In this document: in pieces, positions 6,493-36,561 of the stretch
How the letters are laid out: every line of letters starts with the position of its first letter
Position numbering within the stretch: the first letter of the stretch is position 1
Source of the DNA: an uncultured Acidimicrobiaceae bacterium
Lineage (GTDB): Bacteria > Actinomycetota > Acidimicrobiia > Spongiisociales > ZC4RG35
Reading direction: 5' to 3'
Assembly (NCBI GenBank): GCA_964485005.1
Contig: CAZAHX010000001.1
Location: 1-39,535, forward strand
DNA: 39,535 nt
Notes under the pieces: generated by a model
What the model was told of the DNA's origin: nothing
The model's database searches: none
What the model saw: only the letters and a program-made list of their open reading frames with translations
Position numbers and translations under genes: made by a program

Positions 6493-6498
6493 GAGTCC

Positions 6499-21186: not shown

Positions 21187-21982
21187 CGATCAGGGCGAGA
21201 GGGCGGAGAGGCGACCCGGTGGCTCCCCGCAGGTTCAGGGGGACACCGACGAAGCCGAACTCGTAGATGCCGGTGGCGGCGAGGCCCTCGAGGTTCATCG
21301 CCTCGATGATGTGGATGCCCGACTCGACAAGGAGCAGGCGATGTACCGGAAGGAGGGCGTGGCCGGCTCCCGGACGGATCGCTTCATAGGCGACGGTCTC
21401 GGCACCGGTAACACCGATGCGTCGGTCGGCCAGCCAGGCGGCCGCCTCCTCGCCGGGACCGGGGGCGCCATCGACCTGACCCAGAAACACCTCGGCATTG
21501 TTCCAATGGCGGGACCAGCCGGAGCGGACGAGAACAGCGTCGCCCTCGCCCACGGCCACCCCGGCCAGTTTCTCGGCCTGCTCGAGGTCGTCGACGCTGA
21601 TCTTATAGCCCGGTTCGAGCACGTCCTCGTCGCGGGCAGCGGCAACGTCGAGAAGGACACCCCGGCCGAGGAAGGGCCGGATCTCGTCGGCGCCCAGGCG
21701 AGAGAAGCCCACCTGGGACTGGACGGAGCCCGCTTCGACACCACCGTGGAGGCGTCCCTGGTGACTCACGTGACACAAGGCGTCGACATGGGTACCAACG
21801 TGGCCCCCCATGACGATCAGCTCGTTGGCGGCGGAGCTGCCGTCGGCACGGGTCATGTCGCCGTGACGGCGGATCAGGGCCATCTGATAGGGCGGATGGT
21901 TGGGAGACACGGGCATGCCCCGCTCCCATGGATGGGCGAGATCCACGAGCTGGGCCGACGACAGATTCTCCCACAGGCTCAT
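21179..21982 (-). CDS. Cyclase family protein (kynurenine formamidase/isatin hydrolase-like)
   Basis: The ORF extends up to 22081. ATG 21982 forms an ATGA overlap with the CoA-transferase stop and gives 267 aa. HVGTHVDALCH is the family metal motif. Confidence 0.8.
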   Translation of the reverse strand: MSLWENLSSAQLVDLAHPWERGMPVSPNHPPYQMALIRRHGDMTRADGSSAANELIVMGGHVGTHVDALCHVSHQGRLHGGVEAGSVQSQVGFSRLGADEIRPFLGRGVLLDVAAARDEDVLEPGYKISVDDLEQAEKLAGVAVGEGDAVLVRSGWSRHWNNAEVFLGQVDGAPGPGEEAAAWLADRRIGVTGAETVAYEAIRPGAGHALLPVHRLLLVESGIHIIEAMNLEGLAATGIYEFGFVGVPLNLRGATGSPLRPLALIDA

Positions 21983-23178
21983 ACGACCCCTTCGGAGCGT
22001 AGACGCGCCAGCTCGGCCTCGCCGACTCCAAGCTCGCCGAGAACCTCGGCGTTGTCGGCGCCCACGGGACGTCCTGCCCACCGGATCGAGCCGGGGGTCT
22101 CCGAAAGCCGGAACATCACGTTCTGCATCCTCACCTCCCCCAGGTCGTGGTCCTCGACCCGGGCGATCGTGCCCAGAGCCTGATACTGCGGATCTTCGAA
22201 GATCTGGGTGATGTCGTAGACGGGCGCCACCGCTGCCTCGGCCTTCTCGAATTCCTCCACCACCTCGTCCAGGTCACGGTGGGCGATCCAGTTCGCCACA
22301 TAGCCGTCGAGTTGGTCGGCGTGGCGGGCCCGGTCCGACCCGGTGGCGAACCACTCCTCGTCGATGACCTCAGGATGGCCGACCAGTCGCATGACCCGTT
22401 CGGCGACCGCCTGGGCGCTGGTGGAGACCGCCACCCAACGGCCGTCGGCGGTGCGGTAGGTGTTACGGGGGGCGTTGTTGACCGACCGGTTGCCGGTGCG
22501 CTCCTGGACGATCCCGAGCTGGTCGTACCAGATGGGCTGGGGACCAAGGATGCTCAGAATCGGCTCGATGATCGCCAGGTCGACCACCTGGCCGGTGCCA
22601 CCGCCGACGTCACGGTGGTAGAGGCACATCTGGATGGCATTGGCGGCGGCCAGGGCGGCGATGCCGTCGGCCAGGCCGAAGGGGGGAAGGGTGGGGGGTC
22701 CGTCGGGTTGCCCGGTGATGGCCGCGAACCCGCTCATCGACTCGGCCAGCGTGCCGAAGCCGGGGCGGGAAGCATAAGGGCCGAACTGGCCGAAGCCGGT
22801 CACCCGGGCGAGGACCAGGCCCGGATTCACCTCCATCAGCCGGGTGGGGCTCAGGTTCCATCGCTCCAGGGTGCCGGGGCGGAAGTTCTCGATCAGGACG
22901 TCGGTCGACTGGACCAGCCGGAGCATCAGCTCCTGGCCTTGTCGACGCGAGAGATCGATGCTCGCGTTGCGCTTGTTCCGGCCCAGCATCTTCCACCACA
23001 GGTTGACGCCGTTGCGTTCATGCCCGTGGTGACGGACCGGGTCGCCCCGGGGGTGTTCCACCTTGATGACGTCGGCCCCGAAATCTCCCAGGATGGTGGC
23101 GGCCAGAGGGCCCGCGAACAGGGTGGACGCGTCGATGACTCTCACTCCGGCCAGTGGACCTCTCGGTGTGCTAGCCAC
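21979..23178 (-). CDS. Family III (CaiB/BaiF-type) CoA-transferase
   Basis: PLAGVRVIDASTLFAGPLAATILGDFGADVIKVEHP is the typical N-terminus. I prefer GTG 23178 (VASTPRGPLAG...). The ORF is open up to GTG 23268, so the start is uncertain. Confidence 0.88.
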   Translation of the reverse strand: MASTPRGPLAGVRVIDASTLFAGPLAATILGDFGADVIKVEHPRGDPVRHHGHERNGVNLWWKMLGRNKRNASIDLSRRQGQELMLRLVQSTDVLIENFRPGTLERWNLSPTRLMEVNPGLVLARVTGFGQFGPYASRPGFGTLAESMSGFAAITGQPDGPPTLPPFGLADGIAALAAANAIQMCLYHRDVGGGTGQVVDLAIIEPILSILGPQPIWYDQLGIVQERTGNRSVNNAPRNTYRTADGRWVAVSTSAQAVAERVMRLVGHPEVIDEEWFATGSDRARHADQLDGYVANWIAHRDLDEVVEEFEKAEAAVAPVYDITQIFEDPQYQALGTIARVEDHDLGEVRMQNVMFRLSETPGSIRWAGRPVGADNAEVLGELGVGEAELARLRSEGVV

Positions 23179-23258
23179 TATGTTCCACGCGACGGAATCA
23201 CGTTCCGAAACTATAACAGCGGGGTTGCACCCGTCCCTCAACGAATCGGAGTTCGGTC

Positions 23259-24104
23259 TTGGTCCCACATTCCTACCTATATGTGCCCGGAGACCGGCCG
23301 GAGATGCTCACGGGGGCCCTCGGCCGGGGAGCCGACGCCTTGATCGTCGACCTGGAGGACTCGGTGGCGCCCTCTCACAAAGACGAGGCCCGAGAGATCG
23401 TCGCCGGCTGGCTGAGCGACCTTCCGGCGAATTCGCCCCTGCCCGAGATCTGGATCCGCGTCAACCACGGCCCCGATGGCGTGCCCGGGGGCGACATGGC
23501 ACTCGTCCGGCTCGGCCCGGTGACGGGTATCACCCTGCCCAAGACCGAGAGCCCCGAGCAAGTGGAGAACGTGGGCAGGCAAGCCTCGGGGGGGGTGATC
23601 CCCCTGATCGAGTCAGCCAGAGGCATGCTCTGCGCCGATGCCGTCGGCCGGGCGCCTCAGGTGACGCGGCTGGCGCTGGGCGAGGCCGACCTGGCTGCCG
23701 ACCTCGGATGTGAGCCCTCCCCAGACGTGCTCCATCCCTTGCGCATGTCGATTGTCGTCTCCTCGGCCGCCGCCGGCCTTCCTCGCCCCATCGGGCCTGT
23801 CTCCACCGACTTCAACGACATGGAGGATTTCCGGCGTTCCAACCGGGAGTTGAAACGGATTGGCTTCGGAGCCCGCTCGGCCATCCATCCCGTCCAGGTG
23901 GGACCCATCAACGAGGTGTTCGCCCCCGATCCGAACGAGATCGAAGCCGCTCGGCGGGTCGTCCGCGAGGCCGACGAGGCCCAGGCCGCCGGCTCAGGGG
24001 TGTTCTTGGCAGAGGACGGCCGCATGGTCGACGCCGCCGTCGTTCGTCGGGCCCGTCGACTCCTCGACGAGTCCGAGGCCGGAACTGAAGGCGATCGGCA
24101 CTAG
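23259..24104 (+). CDS. HpcH/HpaI aldolase / citrate-lyase beta subunit (CitE)-like acyl-CoA lyase
   Basis: 281 aa from TTG 23259. Motifs: SYLYVPGDRPEM...GADALIVDLEDSVAP...IPLIESARG...LALGEADLAADLG. Confidence 0.85.
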   Translation: MVPHSYLYVPGDRPEMLTGALGRGADALIVDLEDSVAPSHKDEAREIVAGWLSDLPANSPLPEIWIRVNHGPDGVPGGDMALVRLGPVTGITLPKTESPEQVENVGRQASGGVIPLIESARGMLCADAVGRAPQVTRLALGEADLAADLGCEPSPDVLHPLRMSIVVSSAAAGLPRPIGPVSTDFNDMEDFRRSNRELKRIGFGARSAIHPVQVGPINEVFAPDPNEIEAARRVVREADEAQAAGSGVFLAEDGRMVDAAVVRRARRLLDESEAGTEGDRH

Positions 24105-24148
24105 GAGGACGCTCCTCCGGAACCGACCGGTACAGTCAGGTCCCGCCG

Positions 24149-24928
24149 ATGAACGCCACCGAAACCCCTCGCAGCCAGACGATCGCCACCGTGGAGCGGG
24201 CCGCCGATGTGCTCAACGCCTTCACTCGGGCGGACGGGGAAACGCTGGGCGTGACCGAGTTGGCTGACACACTCGGCCTCTCCAAGGCCGTTGTCCATCG
24301 CATCCTCAGCTCGCTGCGGATGAAGGGCTTCGTCGAGGTCCACGAGGGGACCCGCCGCTACTCCCTCGGGCCCGCCGCTCTCGCCCTCGGCCTCACCTAC
24401 CTCCAGGGCATCGACGTGCGAGACCGAGCCCGCCCGGTCCTCCGCGAGCTGAGCGAACGCACCAACGAGACGGCGACCCTGTCGGTACGGCGCGGAGACA
24501 GCCGCATATACGTCGACCAGATCACCCCGCCCCGCGAGGTGCGGATGACGGTGCGGCTCGGCCACCCCTACCCCCTTCACGCCGGCGGCTCCTCCAAGAC
24601 ATTCCTGGCCCATCTTCCCGAAGAAGAAGTTGATGCCTACCTTGCCAGGGACCTCGAGAGGCTGACGCCGACAACCATCGTCGACAAGACGAAGCTCCGC
24701 GCCGAGATAGAACGCATCCGCCGGGCGGGATACGGGATCTCGTTCGGCGAGCGCCAGGACGGCGCCGGGTCGGTAGCGGCGCCGGTGTTCGACCACGAGG
24801 GAGGCCCGGTGGCGGTGATCAGCGTTTGCGGTCCGGTCGAGAGATTCCGCGGCGAAGTCGAGGACATCGCTCCGTTGCTGCTCGAAGCCACCAGGCGGCT
24901 CTCCCGTCAGCTCGGCTGGAAGCCCTAG
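24149..24928 (+). CDS. IclR family transcriptional regulator
   Basis: 259 aa. HTH region VERAADVLNAFTR...LGVTELADTLGLSKAVVHRILSSLRMKGFVE, followed by an IclR effector domain (GYGISFGERQDGAGSVAAPV). Confidence 0.9.
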   Translation: MNATETPRSQTIATVERAADVLNAFTRADGETLGVTELADTLGLSKAVVHRILSSLRMKGFVEVHEGTRRYSLGPAALALGLTYLQGIDVRDRARPVLRELSERTNETATLSVRRGDSRIYVDQITPPREVRMTVRLGHPYPLHAGGSSKTFLAHLPEEEVDAYLARDLERLTPTTIVDKTKLRAEIERIRRAGYGISFGERQDGAGSVAAPVFDHEGGPVAVISVCGPVERFRGEVEDIAPLLLEATRRLSRQLGWKP

Positions 24929-26382
24929 CCGCCGGGACGGGAGATGTAATGCCCGGTGGGCTCTCCCACCACCTGGCCGTCGTCGAGAATGCGGTTGCCC
25001 CGCAGGAACACGTGCTTGACACGGGCGGTCAGCTCGTGGCCCTCGAAAGGGGAGTACTCCTGGGTCGACTCGGACCTCGCCGCCTCCACCGTCCACGACT
25101 CATCGGGGTCGAGGAGCACGACGTCGGCATCGAACCCGGGGGCGAGGTCGCCCTTGTTGTCAAGACCGAAACGCCGGGCGGGGTTCCGCGACACCAGCTC
25201 TGCGACCCGGTTGGGCGTAAGGCCCCGGCGGCGACCCTCGCTGAACAGGCCGGCGAGCAGGTACTCGGTCCCTCCGAAGCCGGACTTGGCCTGCCAGATG
25301 TCGTCTGGATCGGAGCCCAGCTTGGTGGCCTCCCGACAGCAGGCGTGGTCGGACACGACCCAGTCGATTTCGCCGGCAGTCACCGCCTCCCATAGCGCCT
25401 CCACGTCGGCGCGGGGACGGATGGGCGGGTTCACCTTCCCGTAGAGCCCCCCGGCATGGTCGAGGTCGGCGAGGAGGTGGCCAACCGTGACCTCCCTTCG
25501 CATGTCGAGCTCGGGAAACACCTTCGCCATGAGACGCGCCGCCTCCACCGCCCGCAACGACGACAGGTGGAGCAGGTTGATGTTGGGGAACGCGGTCACG
25601 TGAGCGAGATAGGCGGCGATGGTGATGGCCAGCCCCTCAGAGTGGGGCGGGCGGGCGGCCGAGTAGGCGGCCAGGCCCCGGAGGTCGGGATCCGCCTCCG
25701 CCATCTCGGTGTATGCGGTCATGATCTCGGCGCTCTCGCAGTGCAGGCTCACCGATATCTGGTCGGCGATGTGGGGATGCGACTCCCGGGCCGCCTGAGC
25801 CTCGCGCATGATGAACTCGAAATGGGCGTAGTCGTAGCGCTCGCCGGGGGACGTCATCAAGAACGAGGCCTGATCGTCGGAGCGGCCGTGGAGGCCGTGA
25901 CCTCCGTAAAACATGAAGATCTTGAAGGAGGGCACCCCGAAATCGTCGATCAGCAGCGGCATCTCGTCGATGTGGCGCCGTTCGATGGGCGCTAGGTGAA
26001 AGGCATAGTCGACGTGGGCGAGGCCCGAGGTGGTTGCGAGCACCTCGGGAAAGAACTCGGCGTAGGGCCCGCCCCTGTTCAAGTAGTACTGGCCGGTCCG
26101 GAAGTACGTCATGGCGGTGGTAGTCCCGCCCTGGGCGGCAGCCCGGCTTTCGCTGACGGCGTCCTCGGACAGGGGGTTGTAGATGCCCCAGTGGCAGTGG
26201 GCATCGACCACACCGGGGAACGCGAGGAGCCCGGCGGCGTCGACCACCTGGGCGTTGTTGGCTTCCAGGTTCGGTCCGATGGCGGCGATCTCTCCGGAGC
26301 GGACGGCAATGTCGGCGGTCTCGGTTGCCGCCGCACCGGGGCGCACCACTTCCGCACCCCGGATCACCAGATCGTATTGCAT
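24925..26382 (-). CDS. Cyclic amidohydrolase, dihydropyrimidinase/D-hydantoinase/allantoinase-like
   Basis: The ORF extends up to 26520. ATG 26382 is preceded by AAGGAGGAG and gives 485 aa. Motifs: GVVDAHCHW (HxH), SFKIFMFYGG (carboxylated-Lys context), VSLHCES, LLHLSS, VSDHACC. Confidence 0.85.
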   Translation of the reverse strand: MQYDLVIRGAEVVRPGAAATETADIAVRSGEIAAIGPNLEANNAQVVDAAGLLAFPGVVDAHCHWGIYNPLSEDAVSESRAAAQGGTTTAMTYFRTGQYYLNRGGPYAEFFPEVLATTSGLAHVDYAFHLAPIERRHIDEMPLLIDDFGVPSFKIFMFYGGHGLHGRSDDQASFLMTSPGERYDYAHFEFIMREAQAARESHPHIADQISVSLHCESAEIMTAYTEMAEADPDLRGLAAYSAARPPHSEGLAITIAAYLAHVTAFPNINLLHLSSLRAVEAARLMAKVFPELDMRREVTVGHLLADLDHAGGLYGKVNPPIRPRADVEALWEAVTAGEIDWVVSDHACCREATKLGSDPDDIWQAKSGFGGTEYLLAGLFSEGRRRGLTPNRVAELVSRNPARRFGLDNKGDLAPGFDADVVLLDPDESWTVEAARSESTQEYSPFEGHELTARVKHVFLRGNRILDDGQVVGEPTGHYISRPGG

Positions 26383-26407
26383 TGCTCCTCCTTGTCTCGG
26401 CGGGGTC

Positions 26408-27808
26408 TCATTCGAACGGCCAGGTAGCCAGGGGACGGTCGGGACCGGCTTCCGCGAGCGCGCGGGCCACGACCCGATTGACGTCGGCGACCACCTCGTC
26501 CATGTCCCAGGCGACGACACGCCCGGACTCGACGATGACCTCGCCGGCCACCATCACCGTCTCCACCTCGGAAGGTCCGACCGCGTAGACGAGATTCGAG
26601 ATAGTCGCCGGGTACGGGTTGAGCGGTGCCCGACGTCTATCGAGCACCACCAGGTCGGCCTGTTTGCCGACCTCGATCGAGCCCAGGGTTTCCTCCAGGT
26701 GAAGGGCGCGGGCGCCACCCCACGTGGCGAGCTGGAGCATCATTTCGGGGTCGCCGAACGAGGCGTCACCTGCCTCGGCCCGTTGATGGAGGATGGTCGT
26801 CTTCATGGCCTGGAAGAAGTCGTGAGCGTCGTTGGGCTGGTCGGTACCGAGGCCAAGCCGAACACCGGCCTCGACCAAGCCGTTGACCGGGGCGGCCTTC
26901 ATGCCGATGAGCATGTTCGCGCCGGCGCAGAGGGAAACGCCGGCGTCGGCCTCGGCGACAGCCTGGATCTCGGAGTCGTCGAGCCACACCGGGTGGTATC
27001 CGAGGAATCGGTGGTCGAGTATCTCCCAGTCGGCGAGCAAGGTCATCAGGGGCTGGCCGTGCTCCTCGACAGTATGGCTAGCGGCCGCCTCCGAGTAGGA
27101 GATGTGCATGGCGAACCCGGTGTCCGCCTCCACTGCCCAGTCGTGCAGGCCCCGGAGCAGGGGCGGGGTCACCCGATGGGCCGACATCGCCTCGGCTCCA
27201 ACCTGGACCCGGTCGCTGTTCCAGCGGTGCTGGAGCCGGGAGAGCTCCGAACGGGCCAGTTCGAGGTCGTCGTGGCGGTGTGCGGGAACCAGCTCGCTCC
27301 GATCGACCGAAGCCCGGTAGAAGAACCCGCGGAGGCCGGACTCCGTCAATGCCCGCAGAGTGCCGTCGGCGGCACCTTCCAGGCCCCGTCGAGCGGCCTG
27401 GCTGTCGGTGGTGGTCGTCACCCCCGAGAGCATCAGCTCGGTGAGAGCGAGCCGGGCACCGGAGTAAGCGGCCTCTTCGTCCATCGCCTCTCGGATGGCG
27501 GTCGCCATCGCCGCCCCGGCGGGATCTCCACCGACCAGAAAGCGGTCGCCGCCCAGGCCCCGGGTGAGCGATGAGACCAGATGAGCGTGAGTGTTGACGA
27601 AACCCGGGATCACCACCCGGTCTGCCAGGTCACGTACCTCGACGGCAGCGGGAACCGGTCCGGCGGCGGCTGCCACGCCAACGATGCGGCCGCCGGCTAT
27701 GGATACCCTCCCGGGATCGATGACGCGGGGGGCAGGTCCCATGGTCAGGACCATCGACCCTTCCAGGACGAGGTCGACCGGCTCGGGCTCGGGGAGGTCA
27801 GGCGACAC
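26408..27808 (-). CDS. Amidohydrolase-superfamily deaminase/hydrolase (cytosine/guanine deaminase, chlorohydrolase, MtaD-like group)
   Basis: The ORF extends up to 28033. An in-frame GTG at 27808 overlaps the upstream stop by 11 bp and gives 466 aa. Motifs: IPGFVNTHAHL, FAMHISYSE, LGLGTDQPN. Confidence 0.85.
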   Translation of the reverse strand: MSPDLPEPEPVDLVLEGSMVLTMGPAPRVIDPGRVSIAGGRIVGVAAAAGPVPAAVEVRDLADRVVIPGFVNTHAHLVSSLTRGLGGDRFLVGGDPAGAAMATAIREAMDEEAAYSGARLALTELMLSGVTTTTDSQAARRGLEGAADGTLRALTESGLRGFFYRASVDRSELVPAHRHDDLELARSELSRLQHRWNSDRVQVGAEAMSAHRVTPPLLRGLHDWAVEADTGFAMHISYSEAAASHTVEEHGQPLMTLLADWEILDHRFLGYHPVWLDDSEIQAVAEADAGVSLCAGANMLIGMKAAPVNGLVEAGVRLGLGTDQPNDAHDFFQAMKTTILHQRAEAGDASFGDPEMMLQLATWGGARALHLEETLGSIEVGKQADLVVLDRRRAPLNPYPATISNLVYAVGPSEVETVMVAGEVIVESGRVVAWDMDEVVADVNRVVARALAEAGPDRPLATWPFE

Positions 27809-29552
27809 TGTCTGAGGGATCCTCCTGGTGGGCGGGAAGGTCGCCGTCGATGGCGCGGTCTCCCGTGGGTATCCCCAGCGCCCACTTGCCGTAGACACCG
27901 CCGTTGCGGTCCCAGTTGAGGCCGATCTGGGCAGCCATCGCCGAGATGTCCCGAAAGTGTCGCTGGACCGGGTTCGTGTGAGAGAGCCCGCTCGCTCCCA
28001 TCTGCCGGACCAGGCGATGGACGGCATCGACACACTGGCGGGTCAGCCAGGCCCGATCACGCATCGTCTCCACCCGTTCCCGGGGATTCAGCAGGTCACC
28101 CGCCCGGGCCCGGCGGACCAGCGTGTCGGTGATCCCTTCCACCAGCCGGGCCGCCGCCCCGATCTGAGCGGCCGACTCAGCCACTCGCAACTGGACCGGG
28201 ACCGACTCGGCGATGCGGTTGGCGAAGATGGCACCGATACGGGCCCGGGTTGCCTCCAGGTAGTCCTCGAGGGCGCCCTCGGCCGCACCCAGGATCGGGC
28301 CGAGGAGGATGGTGCCGAAGGCGGGGCCCAGCTCCATGCGATACACGGGGTGCTCGTTGGCGTCGGCCCCGGGAGGGTTCGAGCCCAGGAGCTCGAGAAA
28401 GCCCAGCGTACGATGGTCGGGAACGAACACCGGCTCGGCGAGAAGCGCCTGCTTGCTCCCGGTGCCCTGCAATCCGGATACATGCCAGTCGTCGACGATC
28501 TCGTACTCGGACGCGGGGATGAGGCATTGGCGCAACACTGCCGGACCGCTGCCTTCGAGGCCTTCAACGGGGGCAGGGACGATGACCCACTGGGCGTGGT
28601 CGATGCCGCTGGCGAACCGCCATCCCCCGTCGACCAGAAAGCCGCCGTCCACCGGCACTGCCTTACCTGAGACCCGGGCTGATCCGGTGGCGATGAGAAC
28701 GTCATCGTCGGTGCTCCACACCTCTTGCTGGGCCTGGTCCGCATAGCGGCCCACCATGACGGAGTGGGTGGTGACCACCGCGGCGATCCATCCGGTGGAC
28801 CCGCATGCCCGGGCGAGCAGGCGCGCCGCCTCGATCTGGACGCCCCACTCCACTTCGATCCCTCCGTAGCGCTCGGGCCGAAAGAGGCGGAACAAGCCGG
28901 CGGCCTTGAGCTCGTCGATGGTCTCGCCGGGCAGCTCGCCGAGCTCCTCCGTGTCCCGCGCTCTCTCGCGAATTCCGGTCACCAGGTCGCGGACGTTGTC
29001 CAGCACGGATTCGGCCACCTCGGTGTGGGCTGCGGTTGTCATCGCGGATCTTCTCCTTTGTACATCGGTCTCGACCGGCGGCGCCGGCGGAGAGGTGTGA
29101 AAGCTTCGATTCCAGGACAGGAGCGGGCCGGCCGACGCCACTGACGTCGACAAGACAAGCCCGATCACTACCGTGTGATCCCCGTGCGTCACGACCGAAT
29201 CGACATGGCAGATGGCGTGTCCGACGCTGCCGGCCAGGACGGGCACGCCTTCCTCCCACCCCCACTCCACCTGCTGGAACTTGTCGGGCCGCTTGGACGC
29301 AAAGAGGTAGGCGCTGTTCTGCTGGCCGGGAGCGAGCATCATGAGCCCGAAGGTGTCGCCGCCGACGAGGGCATCGTGGCTGAAGGCCGACCGGTCGATC
29401 GAAACCATGAGGGAGGCGGGATCGTGAGCATGGGGAGATACCGACGTGGCCGTGAACCCGCGGGGTCGACCCAGGTCGTCCTTGCCTGTCACCACGTACA
29501 CGGCCGACGCCACCATGGCCATCGCCTGGCGGAAGAGCTCAGCGGTGGTCAT
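27798..29552 (-). CDS. Single ORF fusing an N-terminal flavin reductase domain to an HsaA/C2-HpaH-type (acyl-CoA-dehydrogenase-fold) flavin-dependent monooxygenase
   Basis: 584 aa from ATG 29552. Residues 1 to about 155 (FRQAMAMVASAVYVVTG...GFTATSVSPHAHDPASLMVSI...GDHTVVIGLV...GPLLSWNRSF) form a flavin_reduct domain. Residues about 171-584 (LRRLPGETIDELKAAGLFRLFRPERYGG...ACGSTGWIAAVV...GGWRFASGIDHAQW...SGLQGTGS...NPVQRHFRD) resemble HsaA-type oxygenases. There is no stop between the two parts. Confidence 0.8.
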   Translation of the reverse strand: MTTAELFRQAMAMVASAVYVVTGKDDLGRPRGFTATSVSPHAHDPASLMVSIDRSAFSHDALVGGDTFGLMMLAPGQQNSAYLFASKRPDKFQQVEWGWEEGVPVLAGSVGHAICHVDSVVTHGDHTVVIGLVLSTSVASAGPLLSWNRSFHTSPPAPPVETDVQRRRSAMTTAAHTEVAESVLDNVRDLVTGIRERARDTEELGELPGETIDELKAAGLFRLFRPERYGGIEVEWGVQIEAARLLARACGSTGWIAAVVTTHSVMVGRYADQAQQEVWSTDDDVLIATGSARVSGKAVPVDGGFLVDGGWRFASGIDHAQWVIVPAPVEGLEGSGPAVLRQCLIPASEYEIVDDWHVSGLQGTGSKQALLAEPVFVPDHRTLGFLELLGSNPPGADANEHPVYRMELGPAFGTILLGPILGAAEGALEDYLEATRARIGAIFANRIAESVPVQLRVAESAAQIGAAARLVEGITDTLVRRARAGDLLNPRERVETMRDRAWLTRQCVDAVHRLVRQMGASGLSHTNPVQRHFRDISAMAAQIGLNWDRNGGVYGKWALGIPTGDRAIDGDLPAHQEDPSDSVA

Positions 29553-29587
29553 GGCGCGTCCCCCCAATCGTCGGCGAACGACCAGGG

Positions 29588-30502
29588 GTGCACGTGCGCC
29601 AGGTGAGTCTCATCCGACCGGGAGATCCGCCGACGCTGGTGGTCGAGTCCGTCCAAGGGGCCGGGTTGCCGATGGTGTACGCCGAGGTGGAGCCGCTCGA
29701 CGTCCAGGTCGCCATGGGACATGTGCCGCGCCCCCTTCCCACACTCCCCGGGGCGACCGCCATCGTGCAGACCGCCGATGGGCTTGGCTACGTGATGCCG
29801 GGCGGGTGCGATGGCACCTGGGCCGACAAGATCGACGTGGATAGCCGCTGGGTCGTTCCGCTGCCGCCGGGCATCGACCCGGCCACGGTCGCCTGCACGA
29901 CCGGTGCCGGGGTGGTCGCTCGCCTGGCCCTCTTCGATCGGGGTGGGCTGGCCAAGGGCGAAACGGTGCTGGTGATCGGGGCCAGTGGATTCGTGGGGCG
30001 TGCCGCCGTAGAGCTCGCCACCCACGCCGGTGCGAGGGTGATCGCCACCGCCCGCAACCCGGCCGCGATCCCGGAAGGACCCGAGGGGGCGCTGAGCCTC
30101 GACGGGTTCGCGGACAAGGTCCGTTCGCTGACCGACGGACATGGAGCCGATTTGATCGTCGACGTGCTGGGAGGAGACAGCCTCAACGAGGCAATCCGAG
30201 CCGGTGCCATAGGATGCCGCCACCTCCTGGTCGGCACTGCCTCCGGGACCAGGCCCGGAGTCTCCTTGCCCCTCCTTCTCATACGGCAACACCGCCTCGA
30301 GGGGTTTCGCCGCTCGGCCACGAACGCTGACGTCTTGCGCGAGGCCCATCAGGACACGTTGTCGGACATCGAAGCGGGTGTCATCACCGCCCGACAGGCG
30401 CCCGTGTTCGACCTGGAGTTGGCCGCGGCTGCGATCCAGACGGTCCGGGAAGGAGGGCACGCACTGCTGTCGGGAAGACATCACGAAGGCTCCGAGGGAT
30501 AA
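29588..30502 (+). CDS. Quinone oxidoreductase / zeta-crystallin-like MDR family protein (no zinc motifs)
   Basis: 304 aa from GTG 29588. GETVLVIGASGFVGRAAVELA is the cofactor loop. The structural and catalytic Zn Cys motifs are absent. Confidence 0.8.
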   Translation: MHVRQVSLIRPGDPPTLVVESVQGAGLPMVYAEVEPLDVQVAMGHVPRPLPTLPGATAIVQTADGLGYVMPGGCDGTWADKIDVDSRWVVPLPPGIDPATVACTTGAGVVARLALFDRGGLAKGETVLVIGASGFVGRAAVELATHAGARVIATARNPAAIPEGPEGALSLDGFADKVRSLTDGHGADLIVDVLGGDSLNEAIRAGAIGCRHLLVGTASGTRPGVSLPLLLIRQHRLEGFRRSATNADVLREAHQDTLSDIEAGVITARQAPVFDLELAAAAIQTVREGGHALLSGRHHEGSEG

Positions 30503-30933
30503 AGAGAACCATCCCACCAGACCAGTGGATCTCCGCTGCCAATGACGACCTCCACCACATCTCCGATCACCAGGAAGCGGTCGAGGATGAGCGACCGGAC
30601 GACCGTCTCACAAGCGAGAGCGCACAGAGATCCTTCCACGACAGGGACGCCGGCCAGCAGCGCGTAGTCGAACAAGCTATCAACGGACCCCCAGAAGCCC
30701 GTCGCCAGGGATAGGTGGGATCGCGTGAGTATCGACACCCCGAACCTTTCCCCGAGAGGGAGTTCTTTCGGTAGGGACACCATCACGGAGGGCGGATCGA
30801 CCGAGTAGGAGGCCACGGTGGGGACGACCACCATTGACGCCTCTGTGTCCTCCAACGTCGAGATGGCGGCCGCGGCCGAGGCCATCGCCTCGAGGAACTC
30901 GGCGGGCGCTGTGGCGATAGCGGGTCTCGTCAT
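30481..30933 (-). CDS. Flavin reductase-like (FMN-binding split-barrel) domain protein
   Basis: The ORF extends up to 30978. ATG 30933 forms an ATGA overlap with the upstream membrane-protein stop and gives 150 aa. Motifs: FLEAMASAAAAISTL...SYSVDPPSVMVSL...DRFLVIGDVVEV. Confidence 0.7.
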   Translation of the reverse strand: MTRPAIATAPAEFLEAMASAAAAISTLEDTEASMVVVPTVASYSVDPPSVMVSLPKELPLGERFGVSILTRSHLSLATGFWGSVDSLFDYALLAGVPVVEGSLCALACETVVRSLILDRFLVIGDVVEVVIGSGDPLVWWDGSLYPSEPS

Positions 30934-31619
30934 GGTCGTGCCACCGCCAGGATCACCATCACCACCAGTGCCCCCCACACGAACAGCACGGCCGGGTAGA
31001 CGCCTGGAATCGAAGAGTTGACTGCCGCCAGCCTCTCCGGGGTCTCACCCAACTCGAGCAGCTCGGTCAGGGCAGGTCGGTAACGGGCGGCCGCCACCCG
31101 GATCCACAACCCGGCGGCGATGACCACTCCGAAGAGGAGTGCCTTCAAGGCCAGCCAGGTAGGAGCAAAGGGAACCTGGACCGAGAGGGATGTCACCCCC
31201 ATGACCACGAACGCGACCGAAGCCAGGATTCGCAAGGAGATGTCGGACCGGTTGAAAGAGTCGAGTCTCTCATCTGTCGGCTCCTCCTGCCGCCGCCGAA
31301 AGGCCCAGACCGATGCCGCTACCCAGACCAGCGCCAGGATGGTCACCGCCCAAAGAAGCGCAGCGATCAGGGTGGGGTCGGCCGTCCCGAAACCGAACCC
31401 GGATACGCGAGCCAGACCTAGCGCCACCGGGATCATGAGGATGAGGCTCAGACGGGGTGCCAGGTCCAGGCTCGTCATCATCTTCCGCACCTGCGCCCTC
31501 GCCTCCGGGGTCAGCCCCGGCCGGCGCATGACGAAGCTCCCATAGAAGACCCCGACGTCGATCCCCAGCCACGCGACCAGAAGCAGGATATGGAGGATCA
31601 GCAGACCGTCTCGTGCCAT
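30930..31619 (-). CDS. Integral membrane protein of unknown function (about 6 predicted TM segments)
   Basis: 229 aa from ATG 31619. It has repeated hydrophobic stretches (LLILHILLLVAWLGIDVGVFY, LSLILMIPVALGLA, LLWAVTILALVWVAASVWAF, and others). I recognise no family. Confidence 0.6.
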   Translation of the reverse strand: MARDGLLILHILLLVAWLGIDVGVFYGSFVMRRPGLTPEARAQVRKMMTSLDLAPRLSLILMIPVALGLARVSGFGFGTADPTLIAALLWAVTILALVWVAASVWAFRRRQEEPTDERLDSFNRSDISLRILASVAFVVMGVTSLSVQVPFAPTWLALKALLFGVVIAAGLWIRVAAARYRPALTELLELGETPERLAAVNSSIPGVYPAVLFVWGALVVMVILAVARP

Positions 31620-31709
31620 TCGCCTTCACCTCTCTGGCCTTCCCGGGAAATGTGGCTGATCGGCCCGGTTCCTCTCCCGGACGCGCGCTACACTCGTTTC
31701 AGTGACAGC

Positions 31710-31726
31710 GTTCCGTTCACCGGAAC
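31710..31726. promoter_or_regulatory. Palindrome GTTCCG-N5-CGGAAC in a divergent promoter region (candidate regulator site)
   Basis: Perfect 6-bp arms, about 90 bp upstream of the family-5 SBP ATG (31816). GTTCC(G/A) half-sites also occur in the CoA-transferase/CitE divergent spacer at 23182-23207. Confidence 0.3.
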
Positions 31727-31815
31727 CGTTAGGGAGCTTAGCATTCGTGAGGCCGGGGAGTCACCCCCACGGAGTTGCGGATACTGGCCAATACCGACGC
31801 ACGGGAGGAAGGCGA

Positions 31816-33444
31816 ATGCGACAAAGATCGAGCCGATGGATGGTTGTATTGATGGCGATGGCAGTGGTCGTCGCCGGTTGCGGCCCGGCCGCCGAGGAGA
31901 CAACGACTACCGGAGTCGAGCTCCCCGCGACCGAGGCGCCCGAGACCACCACGACGACGGAGGCGCCGGCTACCACCGAGCCCACGACCCCTCCGGAAGC
32001 GACAGCGATATCGGTGGGCATGGGCCTGATGCCTCCTTCGGGCGTTCCCTGGACCGGCGCGGGGTCACCCGGCCAGTATGTGTGGAGCCAGATCTTCGAC
32101 GCCCTCACCTACATCGCCCCCGACGGCACCGTCCAGCCAGGTCTGGCGACCGGGTGGACGTCGGTGGACGAGAACACCTGGGAGTTCACGCTGCAGGAAG
32201 GCGTCAGCTTCGCCAACGGAGAGCCGTTCAACGCCGACGCCGTGGTGGCCACGTTCGACGTCCTTCTTTCAGAGGAGGGGCGGGCGACCTACGCAGCCAG
32301 CGTGGGGAATTACGGGTTCGTCACGTCTGTCGAGGCGATTGACGAATCGACGGTTCGTGTCATCACCGAGACGCCCAACCCGCTTACCCCCAATGCCCTG
32401 TCGCTCGCCTACATCGTGCCTCCGGCGGAGTTCGCCGACGTCGGCGCCGAAGGCTTCGCCTCCTCGCCGTTAGGAACGGGCCCGTATCAGACGACGGCGT
32501 GGAGCGATCAGGAGATAACGCTTGAAGCCTGGGATGGATCATGGCGCGGGGTGCCAGCCATCTCGACCGTCACTTTCATCAACCTGGGCGACGCGGCGGC
32601 ACGTGTCCAGGCCTTGCAGTCGGGTCAGGTCCAGATCGCCCACTCGGTCAGCCCTGACCAGATCGCCGCCCTCGAGGGTGAGGGATTCGGTGTCTTCAGT
32701 GGTACCCGCGGCTCGATGATGTCCCTCGCATTCATCGCCAACGAAGGGGGACCGCTCGCCGAGCAGGCGGTCCGTCAGGCGATGAACTATGCGGTCGACG
32801 TGCAGTCGATCGTCGACGAGCTTCTCCTCGGCTACTCGTCTCCGGGGATGTGGCCACCGGAGGGTGTGACGGGACATGACCCGTCGCGGCCACCGTACCC
32901 CTACGATCCGGACATGGCACGGATGTTGCTGGCCGACGCCGGCTACGCCGACGGGTTCGACATGGTCGCCGAAGTCACCGTTGGCTCTTTCCCCAGCGAC
33001 GCCGACATCTACGAGGCGATGGCCGGCTTCCTGACGGAGGTCGGCATAAACGTCGAGCTGCGCCAGATCGACTTTGCCGGCGAGTGGCTTCCCAAGTTCC
33101 TCGGCACCGACGGAGCCGACTGGGAAGGCGACGCCTTCGGGTTGTCTTGGAACGCGGCGCCACTGATGGATGCCATCAGGCCCTTCTCGTTCTTCAGTTG
33201 CGGGCACGGCAACGAGTTCTTCTGCGACGAGGAGGCCGAGTCCCTCATCAATGAAGTGTCAGCCACCTTCGACGTGGCCGCCCGTGACGCCCTGATGGCT
33301 GACCTGCTCGACATGACCAGAGAGAACCCTTCTGCCCTGTGGCTGGTCGTTACCCCGGAGCTCTGGAGCTTCGACAGCAGCGTGCAGGGCTTCTCGGTCG
33401 ACAACTTCAACATCCGGTTCGAATCGGTGACGGTGGGTGGCTGA
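31816..33444 (+). CDS. ABC transporter substrate-binding lipoprotein, family 5 (Dpp/Opp/Nik-type)
   Basis: The ORF starts at 31702. ATG 31816 is preceded by GGGAGGAAGG and gives 542 aa. Signal peptide plus lipobox VVAGC, then a Thr/Pro/Glu-rich tether, then an SBP_bac_5 body (YIAPDGTVQPGLATGW...ENTWEFTLQEGVSFANGEPFNADAV). Confidence 0.85.
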   Translation: MRQRSSRWMVVLMAMAVVVAGCGPAAEETTTTGVELPATEAPETTTTTEAPATTEPTTPPEATAISVGMGLMPPSGVPWTGAGSPGQYVWSQIFDALTYIAPDGTVQPGLATGWTSVDENTWEFTLQEGVSFANGEPFNADAVVATFDVLLSEEGRATYAASVGNYGFVTSVEAIDESTVRVITETPNPLTPNALSLAYIVPPAEFADVGAEGFASSPLGTGPYQTTAWSDQEITLEAWDGSWRGVPAISTVTFINLGDAAARVQALQSGQVQIAHSVSPDQIAALEGEGFGVFSGTRGSMMSLAFIANEGGPLAEQAVRQAMNYAVDVQSIVDELLLGYSSPGMWPPEGVTGHDPSRPPYPYDPDMARMLLADAGYADGFDMVAEVTVGSFPSDADIYEAMAGFLTEVGINVELRQIDFAGEWLPKFLGTDGADWEGDAFGLSWNAAPLMDAIRPFSFFSCGHGNEFFCDEEAESLINEVSATFDVAARDALMADLLDMTRENPSALWLVVTPELWSFDSSVQGFSVDNFNIRFESVTVGG

Positions 33445-34468
33445 TCGCGAGGGGCTCAGCCGCTCCCCCGTCGAGGAATTGTCGGTCCCGGCCTCGCATG
33501 AGGCCGGGACCGACATCATCAGGGACACCGGCTATGGACGCTACGCACTCCACAAGCTCGGTTATCGGATACTTCAGCTGGTCGGGCTGGTTCTGGGAAT
33601 CACGACCCTCCTCTTCTTCCTCTTGCGCGTCACCGGTGACCCGGCCAGTGTCCTGGTGGGTGATCTCGCCTCCGCTGAGGACGTAGCCCGGGTTCGGCGC
33701 TTCTACGGCCTCGACGAACCGCTGATCGTCCAGTACTTCAAGTTCATCGGCCAGGCAGTGCAGCTCAACTTCGGCAACTCCCTGCGCTCATTCACCGATG
33801 CGTTCGACCTCGTGCTGTCCAAGGTCCCGGCGACGATGATCCTCGCCGCCGCCGCCGTCATGTTGAATCTGATAATCGCCTTGGCGTTCGGGACCTGGCT
33901 CGGCTACCGACCGGAGCGACCAGATCGCCGCCTCGGATTGGCCGCCGTTCTCGTCAGCCAGGGGATCCCCGGGTTCGTCATCGGACTTGTGCTGATCCAG
34001 CTCGTAGCCGTCGAATGGAGGCTGCTTCCGAGCATCGGCTTCGACGGATTACGGAGCCTGATCCTGCCGTCGATCACCCTCGCCTCCTTTCTCCTGCCCC
34101 GAGTCATCCGCCTGACCGCAGCCAACGTGGACCAAGCGATGCGACAGAACTACGTCCGTACAGCCCGGGCATCGGGAGCCTCGTCGCGAGCGGTCATGTG
34201 GCGACACGTCCTACCCAATGCCGTCGTCGGGACCGTCGCCCTGGTGGGTGTCCAGTTCGGGTTCCTGCTGTCGGGCTCGTTGATCACCGAGACGCTGTTT
34301 GCATGGCCGGGCATGGGCCTTCTACTGATCGAGTCGGTGCGGGGTCTGGACTTCCCGGTCGTCCAGGCGGCGATCGCGGTCGTTGCCATCCTCGTGTTCG
34401 CTGTCAACACGCTCACCGACCTCGCTTTTCCTCTCCTGGATCCCCGGCTGCGGAGAGCCCGGGCATGA
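33437..34468 (+). CDS. ABC transporter permease (DppB/OppB-type)
   Basis: LHKLGYRILQLVGLVLGITTLLFFLLRVTGDP is the typical N-terminus, and an EAA-like loop YVRTARASGAS is present. The start is uncertain. The only in-frame canonical starts are GTG 33437 and TTG 33479, and both lie upstream of or inside the stem-loop. Confidence 0.85.
   Translation: MADREGLSRSPVEELSVPASHEAGTDIIRDTGYGRYALHKLGYRILQLVGLVLGITTLLFFLLRVTGDPASVLVGDLASAEDVARVRRFYGLDEPLIVQYFKFIGQAVQLNFGNSLRSFTDAFDLVLSKVPATMILAAAAVMLNLIIALAFGTWLGYRPERPDRRLGLAAVLVSQGIPGFVIGLVLIQLVAVEWRLLPSIGFDGLRSLILPSITLASFLLPRVIRLTAANVDQAMRQNYVRTARASGASSRAVMWRHVLPNAVVGTVALVGVQFGFLLSGSLITETLFAWPGMGLLLIESVRGLDFPVVQAAIAVVAILVFAVNTLTDLAFPLLDPRLRRARA
33480..33515. 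repeat. Perfect 16-bp GC-rich stem with 4-nt loop immediately downstream of the SBP gene
   Basis: tgtcggtcccggcctc-gcat-gaggccgggaccgaca, beginning 36 nt after the SBP stop (33444). It is followed by tcatcagg with no U tract. Confidence 0.75.
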
Positions 34469-35346
34469 CCACACCCGAGACTCAGATCGACGGGACCGGC
34501 TTGAGCCGGCGAGCCCTCAGGTCAACCTACCGGAGGGTCCCTGGTCTGCTCGTGACCGGCCTGGTGGGAGCTGTGATGGTGGTGATCTTGACCTTCTGGG
34601 GCAGCAACCTGGCCGGATTCGAGCCTGGAGCCCAATCGCTCAGCAACCGGCTACAGCCGCCCCTCGAAGGCAGGCACCTCCTGGGTACAGACCGGCTCGG
34701 ACGCGACGTCTTCTCCCGGGTGACCGCCGGGTTCTCATGGTCGCTCCCCGTAGCGCTGGTGGCCACAACCATCGCCTCCACTCTTGGCACCTTGGCCGGC
34801 GTCGCTGCCGGGTGGAACGACGGCTGGGTGAGGACTCTCCTGGTCCGCTTCATGGATATCGCCATCTCGTTTCCCTACCTGGTGCTGGCAGTGGCGATCA
34901 TCGCCGTCACCGGCCGCGGTTTCTGGGCGCTCACTCTGGTGCTCGGACTCGTGTCATGGGTGTCGTTCGCCCGGGTCGTCTACGCCGAGACCCAGCAGAT
35001 CCGCAGCCGCGAGTACGTTCTGGCCGCCCGTCTCATGGCTATCCCCTCCTGGCGCATCCTCGCCACGTATGTGCTGCGTGGCCTCCGTCACACCATCGCC
35101 GTCATGTATGCCTTCATCTTCGCCGACCTGCTTGTCGCCGAGGCGGGCCTCTCGTTTCTAGGCGTCGGGGCTCCGCTCGGCGAGCCGTCGTGGGGCAACA
35201 TGCTGTCCGACTCTCGCCAACAGCTCTTCACGGCGCCATGGCTGATGTACGGACCGGCGATGGCGGTAGTGCTGGCGGTCCTCACGGCCAACCTCATCGG
35301 TGACGGGCTCATTCAACGCTGGGGGAGAGGCACCTCTCAACAATGA
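34465..35346 (+). CDS. ABC transporter permease (DppC/OppC-type)
   Basis: ATG 34465 forms an ATGA overlap with the upstream stop and gives 293 aa. Motifs: HLLGTDRLGRDVFSRV and REYVLAARLMA (EAA loop). Confidence 0.9.
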   Translation: MTTPETQIDGTGLSRRALRSTYRRVPGLLVTGLVGAVMVVILTFWGSNLAGFEPGAQSLSNRLQPPLEGRHLLGTDRLGRDVFSRVTAGFSWSLPVALVATTIASTLGTLAGVAAGWNDGWVRTLLVRFMDIAISFPYLVLAVAIIAVTGRGFWALTLVLGLVSWVSFARVVYAETQQIRSREYVLAARLMAIPSWRILATYVLRGLRHTIAVMYAFIFADLLVAEAGLSFLGVGAPLGEPSWGNMLSDSRQQLFTAPWLMYGPAMAVVLAVLTANLIGDGLIQRWGRGTSQQ

Positions 35347-35359
35347 AGGACGGAACAAC

Positions 35360-35734
35360 ATGAGTGAAGCGGACGGCTCGACGATCCTCGAACAGATCAG
35401 GGAAGCCGGGAGGCGGGTTCTACCAATGCACGAATATCTCGCCGAGCATCACCCGGAGGGCCTCGATGGATACAACTCCTTCTTGACGTCGAGCATCTAC
35501 GACAACGGCTCATTGGAGCCGAGGTATCGAGAGATGGTGTTGGCATGCATCTGCGTCGCGGTCGGCTCGTCGACTCCGGTGATCGCAGCTCATTGCCGCA
35601 AGGCCCTCGGATTTGGTGCCACCCGCGAGGAACTGATCCAGGCGATCGAGATGACTGCTGCGGTCATGGCGACCAGAGGCATGGGGGCCGGGCTCCTCGC
35701 CCTTCTCGAAGCCGACGACGGGGACAACCCATGA
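35360..35734 (+). CDS. Carboxymuconolactone decarboxylase (CMD/AhpD-like) family protein
   Basis: ATG 35360, about 9 nt after AAGGA, gives 124 aa. Motifs: LEPRYREMVLACICVAVGSSTPVIAAHCRKALGFGATREELIQAIE. Confidence 0.8.
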   Translation: MSEADGSTILEQIREAGRRVLPMHEYLAEHHPEGLDGYNSFLTSSIYDNGSLEPRYREMVLACICVAVGSSTPVIAAHCRKALGFGATREELIQAIEMTAAVMATRGMGAGLLALLEADDGDNP

Positions 35735-36561
35735 TCGGAGCAGGCCAGCCCTTAGGAACGTCGAAGCGGCTCTCGTACACCATGTCGGCCGACCGTTACA
35801 CCGGTCGGGTCCTCTACGTGACGTTTCGGACCCCGGCCGATCTTGGCCAGTGGCTTCCCCCTCCGCTGGTGGCCGCGGACCCACATGAGGGCTTCTTGAA
35901 AGTGTACGAGTTGAAGCGTCGCCCCGAACACGGGGAGCCGTATCCGCCATCCTTCAGCCAGTACCGGGAGGTGTGCGTGACCGTGCTCGCTGGACCGCCC
36001 GGCGAGGCGCTGCGTCACTACAACCTCTTCATGTGGGTGAACCGGGACTGGGCGACCTATAAGGCCCGAGAGGCTCTCGGCTGGCCCAAGAAACTGGCGG
36101 ACATAGAAGTCACCACCACCTTTCCCGCTTCTGGCCGCTACGACGCCGATGTGGGGACCCGAGCTTTCGCCGCCGACGTGGTGCGTCATGGCTATCCGTT
36201 GATACGTGTCCGAGCAGCTCTTGATCCAGACGCCCCCGAGCAACCCACTCCTCCATTCAACGGTTTCTACACGGTTCGGCACATCCCTGCCCCTATCGGC
36301 GGCGATGCGATAAGGGAGCTGCTGGTCATCGAGACCCGGGACGGCTGGTTCGGCGACGGAACATACGGCCAGGCTACGGTCGAGTTGGGTGAGGCTCCCG
36401 ACGAGGAGCTCGGTTTGCTGGCCCCCGCCGAGGTGACCGGCTGCGTCCTGCGTGATGTCGGCTGGGTCCTTCCCGGCTGGCCGGCCCGCCGTCAGGCGAC
36501 GTTGGATCCCTGGCCCGTCGAAGTCGGAGAAGCACAACCCGAGAAGGAGAAGATCACATGA
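35731..36561 (+). CDS. Acetoacetate decarboxylase (ADC) family protein
   Basis: ATG 35731 forms an ATGA overlap and gives 276 aa. Motifs: LYVTFRTPADLGQWLPPPL...YREVCVTVLA...YNLFMWVNRDWATYKAREALGWPKKLADI. Confidence 0.75.
   Translation: MIGAGQPLGTSKRLSYTMSADRYTGRVLYVTFRTPADLGQWLPPPLVAADPHEGFLKVYELKRRPEHGEPYPPSFSQYREVCVTVLAGPPGEALRHYNLFMWVNRDWATYKAREALGWPKKLADIEVTTTFPASGRYDADVGTRAFAADVVRHGYPLIRVRAALDPDAPEQPTPPFNGFYTVRHIPAPIGGDAIRELLVIETRDGWFGDGTYGQATVELGEAPDEELGLLAPAEVTGCVLRDVGWVLPGWPARRQATLDPWPVEVGEAQPEKEKIT

Follow-up and report, generated by a model that had tools for sequence, protein, structure and literature searches.

A flavin reductase-oxygenase fusion from an uncultured Acidimicrobiaceae bacterium, with a conserved candidate internal start between its two domains

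StyA2B and IndA2B, of Rhodococcus opacus 1CP and Variovorax paradoxus EPS, are natural fusions of a group E styrene/indole monooxygenase with a reductase (PMC6165268, PMC6017014). The fusion acts mainly as a reductase alongside an unfused oxygenase, StyA1/IndA1 (PMC6165268, PMC6017014), and in reviews of two-component flavin monooxygenases group E StyA2B/IndA2B are the only natural fusions with a reductase to be mentioned. Here we describe a gene of comparable plan on a 39,535-nucleotide (nt) stretch of DNA from an uncultured Acidimicrobiaceae bacterium (contig CAZAHX010000001.1), which we call the window. As in StyA2B/IndA2B, a single polypeptide combines a PF01613-type NADH:flavin reductase with a two-component oxygenase partner. 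The oxygenase of StyA2B is a Rossmann/PHBH-like group E enzyme with the reductase at its C-terminus, whereas the window fusion has the acyl-CoA dehydrogenase (ACAD) fold of group D and an N-terminal reductase, which places it outside the StyA2B family; by analogy, the gene would work like StyA2B but outside that family. The free StyA1/IndA1 oxygenase is functionally parallel to a free oxygenase that we propose here; in the StyA system it comes from a separate paralogous gene, whereas here it would arise from an internal start of the same open reading frame (ORF).

Group D systems with separate components are the nearest relatives of the domains themselves. HsaA, the oxygenase of the 3-HSA hydroxylase HsaAB of Mycobacterium and Rhodococcus (3afe, 3aff, 2rfq), is the closest solved relative of the oxygenase domain and uses a separate PF01613 reductase, HsaB. 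Unlike the fusion, HsaA and HsaB are separate proteins, and their context is steroid catabolism, whereas that of the fusion is amidohydrolases, an ABC importer and IclR. The second-best structural relative of both halves is the C1-C2 p-hydroxyphenylacetate hydroxylase of Acinetobacter baumannii (2jbr; reductase 5zc2), likewise an ACAD-fold oxygenase with a PF01613-family reductase; its components are separate polypeptides, C1 carries an extra regulatory domain, and the fusion scores 208 bits against a 650 cut-off.

In-frame internal initiation also has precedents. The alpha and beta subunits of aspartokinase from lysC of Bacillus and Corynebacterium, ClpB-79 and IF2-beta are products of it, and in aspartokinase the long and short products co-assemble. 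In ArcB-C of Escherichia coli, translation begun internally at a domain boundary produces the C-terminal domain as a separate protein (bioRxiv 10.1101/520783). The window gene resembles these systems in having an internal start codon with its own Shine-Dalgarno sequence (SD) at a domain boundary, and the short product would be identical to the C-terminal part of the long one. It differs in that the internal start, not known as a gene-fusion relic in ArcB-C-type cases, can here be shown to be the start codon of a once separate gene, with initiation at it predicted.

The first-pass annotation described the ORF as a complete flavin reductase joined to a complete HsaA-like oxygenase, and the domain matches over its 584 amino acids (aa) bear this out. 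Its parts are as follows.

27798..29552, minus strand: fused reductase-oxygenase ORF, open, 584 aa plus stop
29094..29522, minus strand: short-chain flavin reductase domain, aa 11-153, PF01613 Flavin_Reduct
29043..29093, minus strand: linker, aa 154-170 PPAPPVETDVQRRRSA, predicted disordered (AlphaFold2)
27801..29042, minus strand: HsaA-like ACAD-fold (group D) oxygenase domain, aa 171-584

The start codon, ATG 29552, is preceded by GGGGGGA, and the N-terminus 'MT(T/I/V)...' is common to the aligned fused homologs P0002-P0005. The N-terminal domain is a complete Flavin_Reduct domain above the gathering score, matching PF01613 with 97.6 bits (cut-off 27) over profile positions 1-151 of 153. The GDH motif is functionally important in the short-chain flavin reductase family; here HGDHT is invariant in the fused homologs, with H123, D125 and H126 among 46 invariant columns across six fused N-domains, and the S-x-x-(D/E)P(P/A) stretch is retained in five of the six. 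The reductase domain thus keeps its GDH motif under purifying selection, with silent sites saturated, and its closest PDB entries are 8ct0, 9fd4 and StyB 4f07.

In the C-terminal domain, Acyl-CoA_dh_N (PF02771) and Acyl-CoA_dh_2 (PF08028) span aa 178-546, above their cut-offs, and whole-domain alignments to PDB entries give HsaA (3afe, E = 9e-73; 2rfq) and C2-HpaH (2jbr, E = 2e-49). Both ACAD-like domains and the full-length similarity to HsaA and C2-HpaH place it structurally among the group D two-component oxygenases. The domain is not an HsaA equivalog: the NCBIfam model NF045629 aligns end to end over aa 184-566 with 323.4 bits, under the cut-off of 450, and the gene context is not steroid-catabolic (no hsaBCD setting). 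An AlphaFold2 model of the fusion, with a mean predicted local distance difference test score (pLDDT) of 73, has two folded domains, the reductase being a beta-barrel; pLDDT falls below 50 at aa 146-175, and the first oxygenase helix runs from aa 174.

We conclude that the ORF is a genuine reductase-oxygenase fusion maintained by selection, since both domains have family-invariant residues and full-length profile matches despite saturated silent sites. The N-terminal half is a predicted NAD(P)H:flavin reductase and the C-terminal half its putative HsaA-like oxygenase partner; homology and the attached reductase suggest that the oxygenase domain would use reductase-supplied reduced flavin for substrate hydroxylation.

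The fusion recurs, and it does so rarely. A search of 5.8 billion clustered proteins returned the full-length fused homologs P0002-P0005 (78, 62, 59 and 59% identity, 579-583 aa), together with P0016, likewise fused but interrupted by a frameshift past the junction, within the oxygenase part. Fused homologs at 53-78% identity come from different samples and independent assemblies with an identical in-frame junction, which is present in six independent contigs, the window and L001-L005; a single ORF is therefore reproducible in independent genomes. These six genes, all metagenome-derived, are the fused set in the comparisons below, and a seventh, L085, is a low-quality scaffold. L005 has a frameshift inside its oxygenase part (9220..9236), and L085, whose scaffold has N gaps, has an in-frame TAA nine codons past the internal ATG (1828..1858); sequencing error or gene decay may explain both.

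This is a very rare architecture. When 1.84 billion representatives were scanned exhaustively with HMMER, the 150 best hits contained two fused clusters only. A protein search with a profile built from the six reductase domains found 97 relatives, all stand-alone and of at most 236 aa, and no further ACAD fusion; the known fused proteins did not reappear among its hits. Scanning metagenome contigs for more fusions gave only the truncated relative L006, and scanning genome contigs gave one close but unfused locus, L011, the rest being stand-alone reductases or two-domain reductases of ~306 aa. A targeted literature search and the reviews of two-component flavin monooxygenases held no report of a natural reductase-ACAD-fold fusion, which does not prove absence. 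Protein searches and literature alike thus support the earlier remark that such an architecture would be unusual.

P0171 and P0233, the only other long matches of the HMMER scan, were set aside as different fusions. P0171 (535 aa) joins a Glyoxalase/VOC N-terminus to an HsaA-like oxygenase and P0233 (646 aa) an ABC_tran ATPase to an oxygenase; the latter may be a gene-calling artefact. The next-closest reductase relatives, L012-L077 (35-41% identity), are the two-domain proteins of ~306 aa, of C1-reductase-like (HpaH) length; they are abundant in metagenome-assembled genomes (MAGs) of sponge-associated Gammaproteobacteria (Poriferihabitaceae, Spongiihabitans, Arenicellales), with a longer-ORF form in Aestuariivirga and Hyphomicrobiales.

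Between the two domains lies a disordered linker of ~20-30 aa, which varies in sequence and length among homologs, SD and ATG excepted. These signals are present in the sequence as the first-pass annotation had them, an AAGGAG 10 nt upstream of an ATG that sits in ATGA, and its length of about 414 aa for a stand-alone oxygenase begun there is correct.

29053..29058, minus strand: internal Shine-Dalgarno AAGGAG, its AGGAG core invariant in 6/6 fused genes and read as Arg codons AGG-AGA
29040..29042, minus strand: internal in-frame ATG, Met171, kept in 6/6 fused genes
29019..29078, minus strand: low-structure mRNA window, -36 to +24 around the internal ATG, minimum free energy (MFE) -9.9 kcal/mol

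The 10-nt spacer AAGATCCGCG separates AGGAG from ATG 29042, the ATGA tetranucleotide occupies 29042..29039, and in the AlphaFold2 model Met171 stands where the linker ends, a few residues ahead of the first oxygenase helix. Initiation at Met171 would give 414 aa, and we regard it as the probable start of a stand-alone oxygenase of that length.

Two features were discarded as evidence. The window has 12 occurrences of AGGAG-N5-10-ATG where shuffles give 7.4 +/- 2.7; alone this is not beyond chance, so that enrichment within the window was dropped and significance comes from the comparison of homologs only. The ATGA was rejected as well: it is found in 4/6 fused genes, is absent in L004 and L005, and reflects the Thr/Ser second codon common to most unfused oxygenase genes. 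A scan for internal promoters able to drive a separate oxygenase transcript, of limited value for this phylum, gave no sigma-70-like site in 27600-29800.

Across all six fused genes AGGAG is followed after 7 or 10 nt by ATG, despite the varying linkers; the low-quality seventh reads likewise.

Window, internal start: CAA AGG AGA AGA TCC GCG ATG
L001, internal start: CAA AGG AGA CCC TCG ATG
L002, internal start: ACG AGG AGC CCG CAG ATG
L003, internal start: GGA AGG AGA CCT CAG CTG ATG
L004, internal start: GAC AGG AGA CGG GAG ATG
L005, internal start: ACG AGG AGA ACA GAC ATG
L085 (seventh, low-quality scaffold), reductase frame: CAC AGG AGA TCG CCG ATG

An SD at 5-10 nt from a conserved start codon, as looked for at an internal initiation site, is thus found in 6/6 genes. 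The first-pass annotation had named homologs without SD conservation as the observation that would speak against its proposal, and the opposite is the case.

AGG and AGA account for 8% and 6% of the Arg codons in the fused genes and CGN for 86%, and L002 has AGG AGC (Arg-Ser), keeping the nucleotides AGGAG while the residue changes from Arg to Ser. The unfused orthologs P0007, P0008, P0009 and P0012 begin with a Met that aligns to Met171. Eight Met columns are conserved in at least four fused genes, and only that of Met171 has an SD in every gene; at the other seven an SD-like motif occurs in none or, for one column, in 2 of 5 genes. The rare AGG/AGA codons, the Arg-to-Ser change in L002, the alignment of the ATG with unfused starts and the unique SD-bearing Met together argue for nucleotide-level selection that still acts on the internal SD and ATG. 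SDs of the AGGAG/GGAGG type precede real starts in the window (e.g. 11766, 16575, 26382, 36558), and an SD-like motif stands before 25/45 called genes in the related loci; no SD could be recognised before the first start of the fused gene in L002, L003 and L005.

The mRNA around the internal start is also weakly structured. In the window gene its MFE compares with a gene mean of -19.9 kcal/mol, and in the six genes the 60-nt window (-36 to +24) ranks 6/565, 19/564, 1/564, 7/560, 4/562 and 17/392 for least structure. When the protein was held constant and codons were resampled, synonymous recodings as unstructured as the native sequence made up 0.3, 0.7, 3.0, 4.3, 6.8 and 6.2% in the six genes (0.3% in the window), against a median p of 0.49 in 180 control windows, 3.9% of which had p <= 0.07. 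The start region thus has the reduced mRNA structure looked for at an internal initiation site.

Close relatives preserve both sides of the fusion event, as an ATGA-coupled pair, a TGA-C-ATG junction and the in-frame fusion; the comparison of orthologous loci that the earlier annotation had proposed therefore turned up both two-gene ATGA-coupled and single-ORF states. In L083 and L084, two independent Logan contigs, a 184-aa reductase and a 398-aa oxygenase share an ATGA overlap, with AAGGA 6 nt upstream; the junction reads ...cacAAGGAatccaaATGAtc, and the reductase stop TGA overlaps the oxygenase ATG. L011, from an uncultured Acidimicrobiaceae MAG (CAYVTP010000009.1), has a TGA-C-ATG junction with GGAG 9 nt upstream. 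With L082, which has a separate reductase 57 bp upstream of the oxygenase, and L079, L080 and L081, which have no adjacent reductase, every state of the reductase/oxygenase boundary occurs within the family: absent, separate, TGA-C-ATG, ATGA overlap and in-frame fusion.

The unfused loci L083/L084 and L011 share the operon order of the fusion locus (membrane protein, small reductase-like paralog, reductase, oxygenase, two amidohydrolases). Their reductases are 47-57% and their oxygenases ~59% identical to the fused domains, and SD and ATG stand in the same place. They differ in the reductase TGA, which either shares bases with the oxygenase ATG or precedes it by 1 nt, making two polypeptides by a one-nucleotide difference in frame. 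From the (W/Y)xRxF motif to the ATG there are 54 nt in fused L001 versus 53 nt in unfused L083, indicating a one-nucleotide frame change, and translating the SD in the oxygenase frame gives the Arg-Arg of the linker (A AGG AGA in the fusion; AAG GAA, Lys-Glu, in L083). In L011 a C8 homopolymer lies 30 nt before the junction (6455..6499), and loss of one C gives an in-frame fusion. L011 is a third-party assembly, and its unfused state may be either real fission or a homopolymer error. At this divergence, the alternative frames that stay open upstream of the junction did not reveal where the ancestral frameshift lay.

We suggest that the fusion arose from a translationally coupled (ATGA) pair when the frame of the reductase tail shifted by one nucleotide. 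The signals that once lay between the genes are now inside the disordered linker, the SD as Arg-Arg and the old start codon as Met171.

The first-pass annotation had offered a recent welding of such a pair as one of its readings; the mechanism is supported by L083/L084 (ATGA) and L011 (TGA-C-ATG), but the recency conflicts with saturated silent sites. Identity at four-fold degenerate sites between fused genes is 0.29-0.47 versus 0.36 expected from base composition, the fused proteins differ by 22-47%, and even the closest pair, window/L001, is already near silent-site saturation. Because silent sites between the fused genes are at or near saturation, the fusion appears to be old, not recent. 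Homologous linkers are visible within the pairs window/L001 and L002/L003, which places the fusion before both splits. In neighbour-joining trees of the oxygenase and reductase domains, unfused L011/L083 branch between fused ones; 0/100 bootstraps grouped all fused genes together, no alternative topology is well supported, and internal branches are short. A single fusion with later fissions or losses, or else repeated fusion, may account for this, and on either account the junction is evolutionarily labile.

We propose, with a probability of roughly 60%, that the gene is an old but labile fusion that retains a functional internal initiation region and yields both the fusion and a free oxygenase. 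30S subunits would still initiate at Met171, giving a 414-aa oxygenase (~45 kDa) beside the 584-aa fusion (~63 kDa). The reductase domain would reduce free flavin with NAD(P)H and pass it to oxygenase active sites. Extra unfused oxygenase subunits would raise the oxygenase:reductase ratio, and free oxygenase could co-assemble with fusion subunits into the usual tetramer; the higher ratio or the co-assembly would limit wasteful autoxidation of reduced flavin. The reductase would be needed only catalytically, and an excess of oxygenase would limit free reduced flavin and H2O2 formation. From the fusion, its intact domains, the precursor-type relatives and the conserved and accessible internal start region, all directly observed, we infer internal initiation, two products, this stoichiometric rationale and the enzyme activities. 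That both products are made, a second reading of the first-pass annotation, is likely rather than proven, given an SD, ATG and spacing invariant in six lineages and the low mRNA structure.

Several points weigh against this proposal. The internal site could be blocked by ribosomes already translating from the upstream start. The mRNA-structure signal may partly reflect the flexible Pro/Thr/Asp-rich linker, although the synonymous-recoding control argues otherwise. There are only six sequences (seven with L085), all of them metagenomic and two disrupted, by the L005 frameshift and the L085 in-frame TAA. The fused genes do not form one clade in the neighbour-joining trees of either domain; several independent, younger fusions are therefore possible, and unfused ancestors would then have passed on some of the SD/ATG conservation.

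More tentatively, the gene could be an obligate two-product gene whose subunits form mixed tetramers with a tuned ratio, its junction acting as a toggle between an ATGA-coupled pair and a fusion through single-nucleotide indels. We consider this extension possible, with the balance of our judgement somewhat against it. A toggle junction would account for the mixing of fused and unfused forms in the tree, and the indel flips would never lose oxygenase expression. If it holds, the gene would encode the first naturally self-sufficient flavin monooxygenase of group D (ACAD fold) and provide an example of translational coupling signals pre-adapting gene pairs for reversible fusion.

Doubtful, yet the strongest of the rival explanations, is a fusion with a single product, in which SD and ATG are relics of independent and relatively young fusions, a consequence of an Arg-rich linker plus a constraint on Met, or an elongation pause that aids co-translational folding. 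Repeated fusion is possible, since the fused genes are not monophyletic in the tree of either domain and L011/L083 nest among them; such events are easy, L011 being a single C deletion in its C8 run away from an in-frame fusion; and one AGGAG-N5-10-ATG is, by the shuffles described above, not a rare thing in the window. Young relics fit poorly with the pairs window/L001 and L002/L003, which share linkers across saturated or nearly saturated silent sites and yet keep all 8 nucleotides. A constraint on Arg at the protein level would favour CGN codons, and it does not accommodate L002, where the residue was changed and the AGGAG kept. Neither a pause site nor a relic explains a conserved ATG at initiation spacing or a structure-minimising choice of codons in 6/6 genes. 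That the junction is a 1-nt assembly error merging two ATGA-coupled genes, as the first-pass annotation had also allowed, or that the fused ORF is a pseudogene, is highly improbable: a frame change of one nucleotide does separate unfused relatives from the fused state and related metagenomic contigs are disrupted (the L005 frameshift, the L085 TAA), but five further contigs at 53-78% identity, each assembled independently from a different sample, share the in-frame junction, the window junction has no homopolymer, and both domains are under purifying selection, with invariant residues, full-length profile matches and saturated silent sites.

An N-terminal reductase on an ACAD-fold oxygenase would be a second, independent fusion solution beyond group E StyA2B/IndA2B, and a possible template for self-sufficient group D biocatalysts (HpaB-, HsaA- or DszC-like), which are usually fused artificially. 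If the old fusion does retain its internal initiation region, annotation pipelines would report the 584-aa product only and miss the likely 414-aa proteoform; selection on the former ribosome-binding site makes it testable that fused genes keep expressing the downstream domain alone.

The fusion belongs to a conserved operon order: a 229-245 aa membrane protein, a small reductase-like paralog, reductase and oxygenase (fused or not), a TRZ/ATZ amidohydrolase and an allantoinase-like amidohydrolase. Its neighbours in the window are these.

30930..31619, minus strand: 229-aa multi-pass membrane protein, the operon's first gene, ATGA-coupled to the small paralog
30481..30933, minus strand: small divergent Flavin_Reduct-like paralog, ~150 aa, PF01613, 43.6 bits
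29588..30502, plus strand: MDR/Zn-ADH-family gene (ADH_zinc_N 2e-12; pattern of GC content at third codon positions)
26408..27808, minus strand: TRZ/ATZ-family amidohydrolase, downstream of the fusion, GTG start 27808, overlapping the fusion end by 11 nt

The membrane protein, 229-245 aa across the loci, has no Pfam or NCBIfam match and heads the operon in all related loci (e.g. L083 2321..3013; L079 5214..5951). The small paralog has no GDH motif and shares 27% identity with the fused N-domain. In related loci (L003 1304..1726; L004 1354..1719; L005 7603..8004; L083 3010..3453) it lies directly upstream of the reductase or fusion, and the loci that lack the reductase (L079-L081) lack the small paralog too; it may be a degenerate partner of the reductase domain.

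The MDR gene stands between the small paralog and the fusion in the window only, being absent there in L003, L004, L005 and L083, and starts 35 bp from the fusion start on the opposite strand. With this plus-strand gene inserted, the fusion heads its own transcription unit in the window. A minus-strand ORF at 29549..30517 (322 aa), which ends in an apparent ATGA overlap with the fusion, was rejected as a coupled upstream gene: it is an antisense shadow of the MDR gene and has no family match. Of the ATGA-coupled pairs that the first-pass annotation saw throughout the locus, the membrane protein gene and the small paralog are indeed coupled, and the ORF directly upstream of the fusion is this shadow.

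The surrounding catabolic island (19786..27808 and 31702..36561) encodes TRZ/ATZ and allantoinase/hydantoinase-like amidohydrolases, IclR, an HpcH/HpaI aldolase, CoA-transferase III, a PF04199 cyclase, MmgE/PrpD, ADC and an SBP_bac_5 ABC importer, and much of it recurs in L005, L079, L080, L081 and L082. The two amidohydrolases, the ABC importer and the IclR regulator, all conserved neighbours, suggest catabolism of an imported nitrogen-containing compound, and the substrate may be an imported N-heterocycle or ureide.

Downstream, the SD of the TRZ/ATZ amidohydrolase, AGGAGG at 27826..27821, lies inside the C-terminal tail of the fusion, a normal coupled arrangement; L001 has the same 11-nt overlap, and L001 and L005 the same embedded SD. 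The allantoinase-like gene, also on the minus strand, probably starts at ATG 26382, which is preceded by AGGAGGAG, not at the first GTG, 26520; family models align from residue 47-50 of the long allantoinase-like ORF (26380..26520 region).

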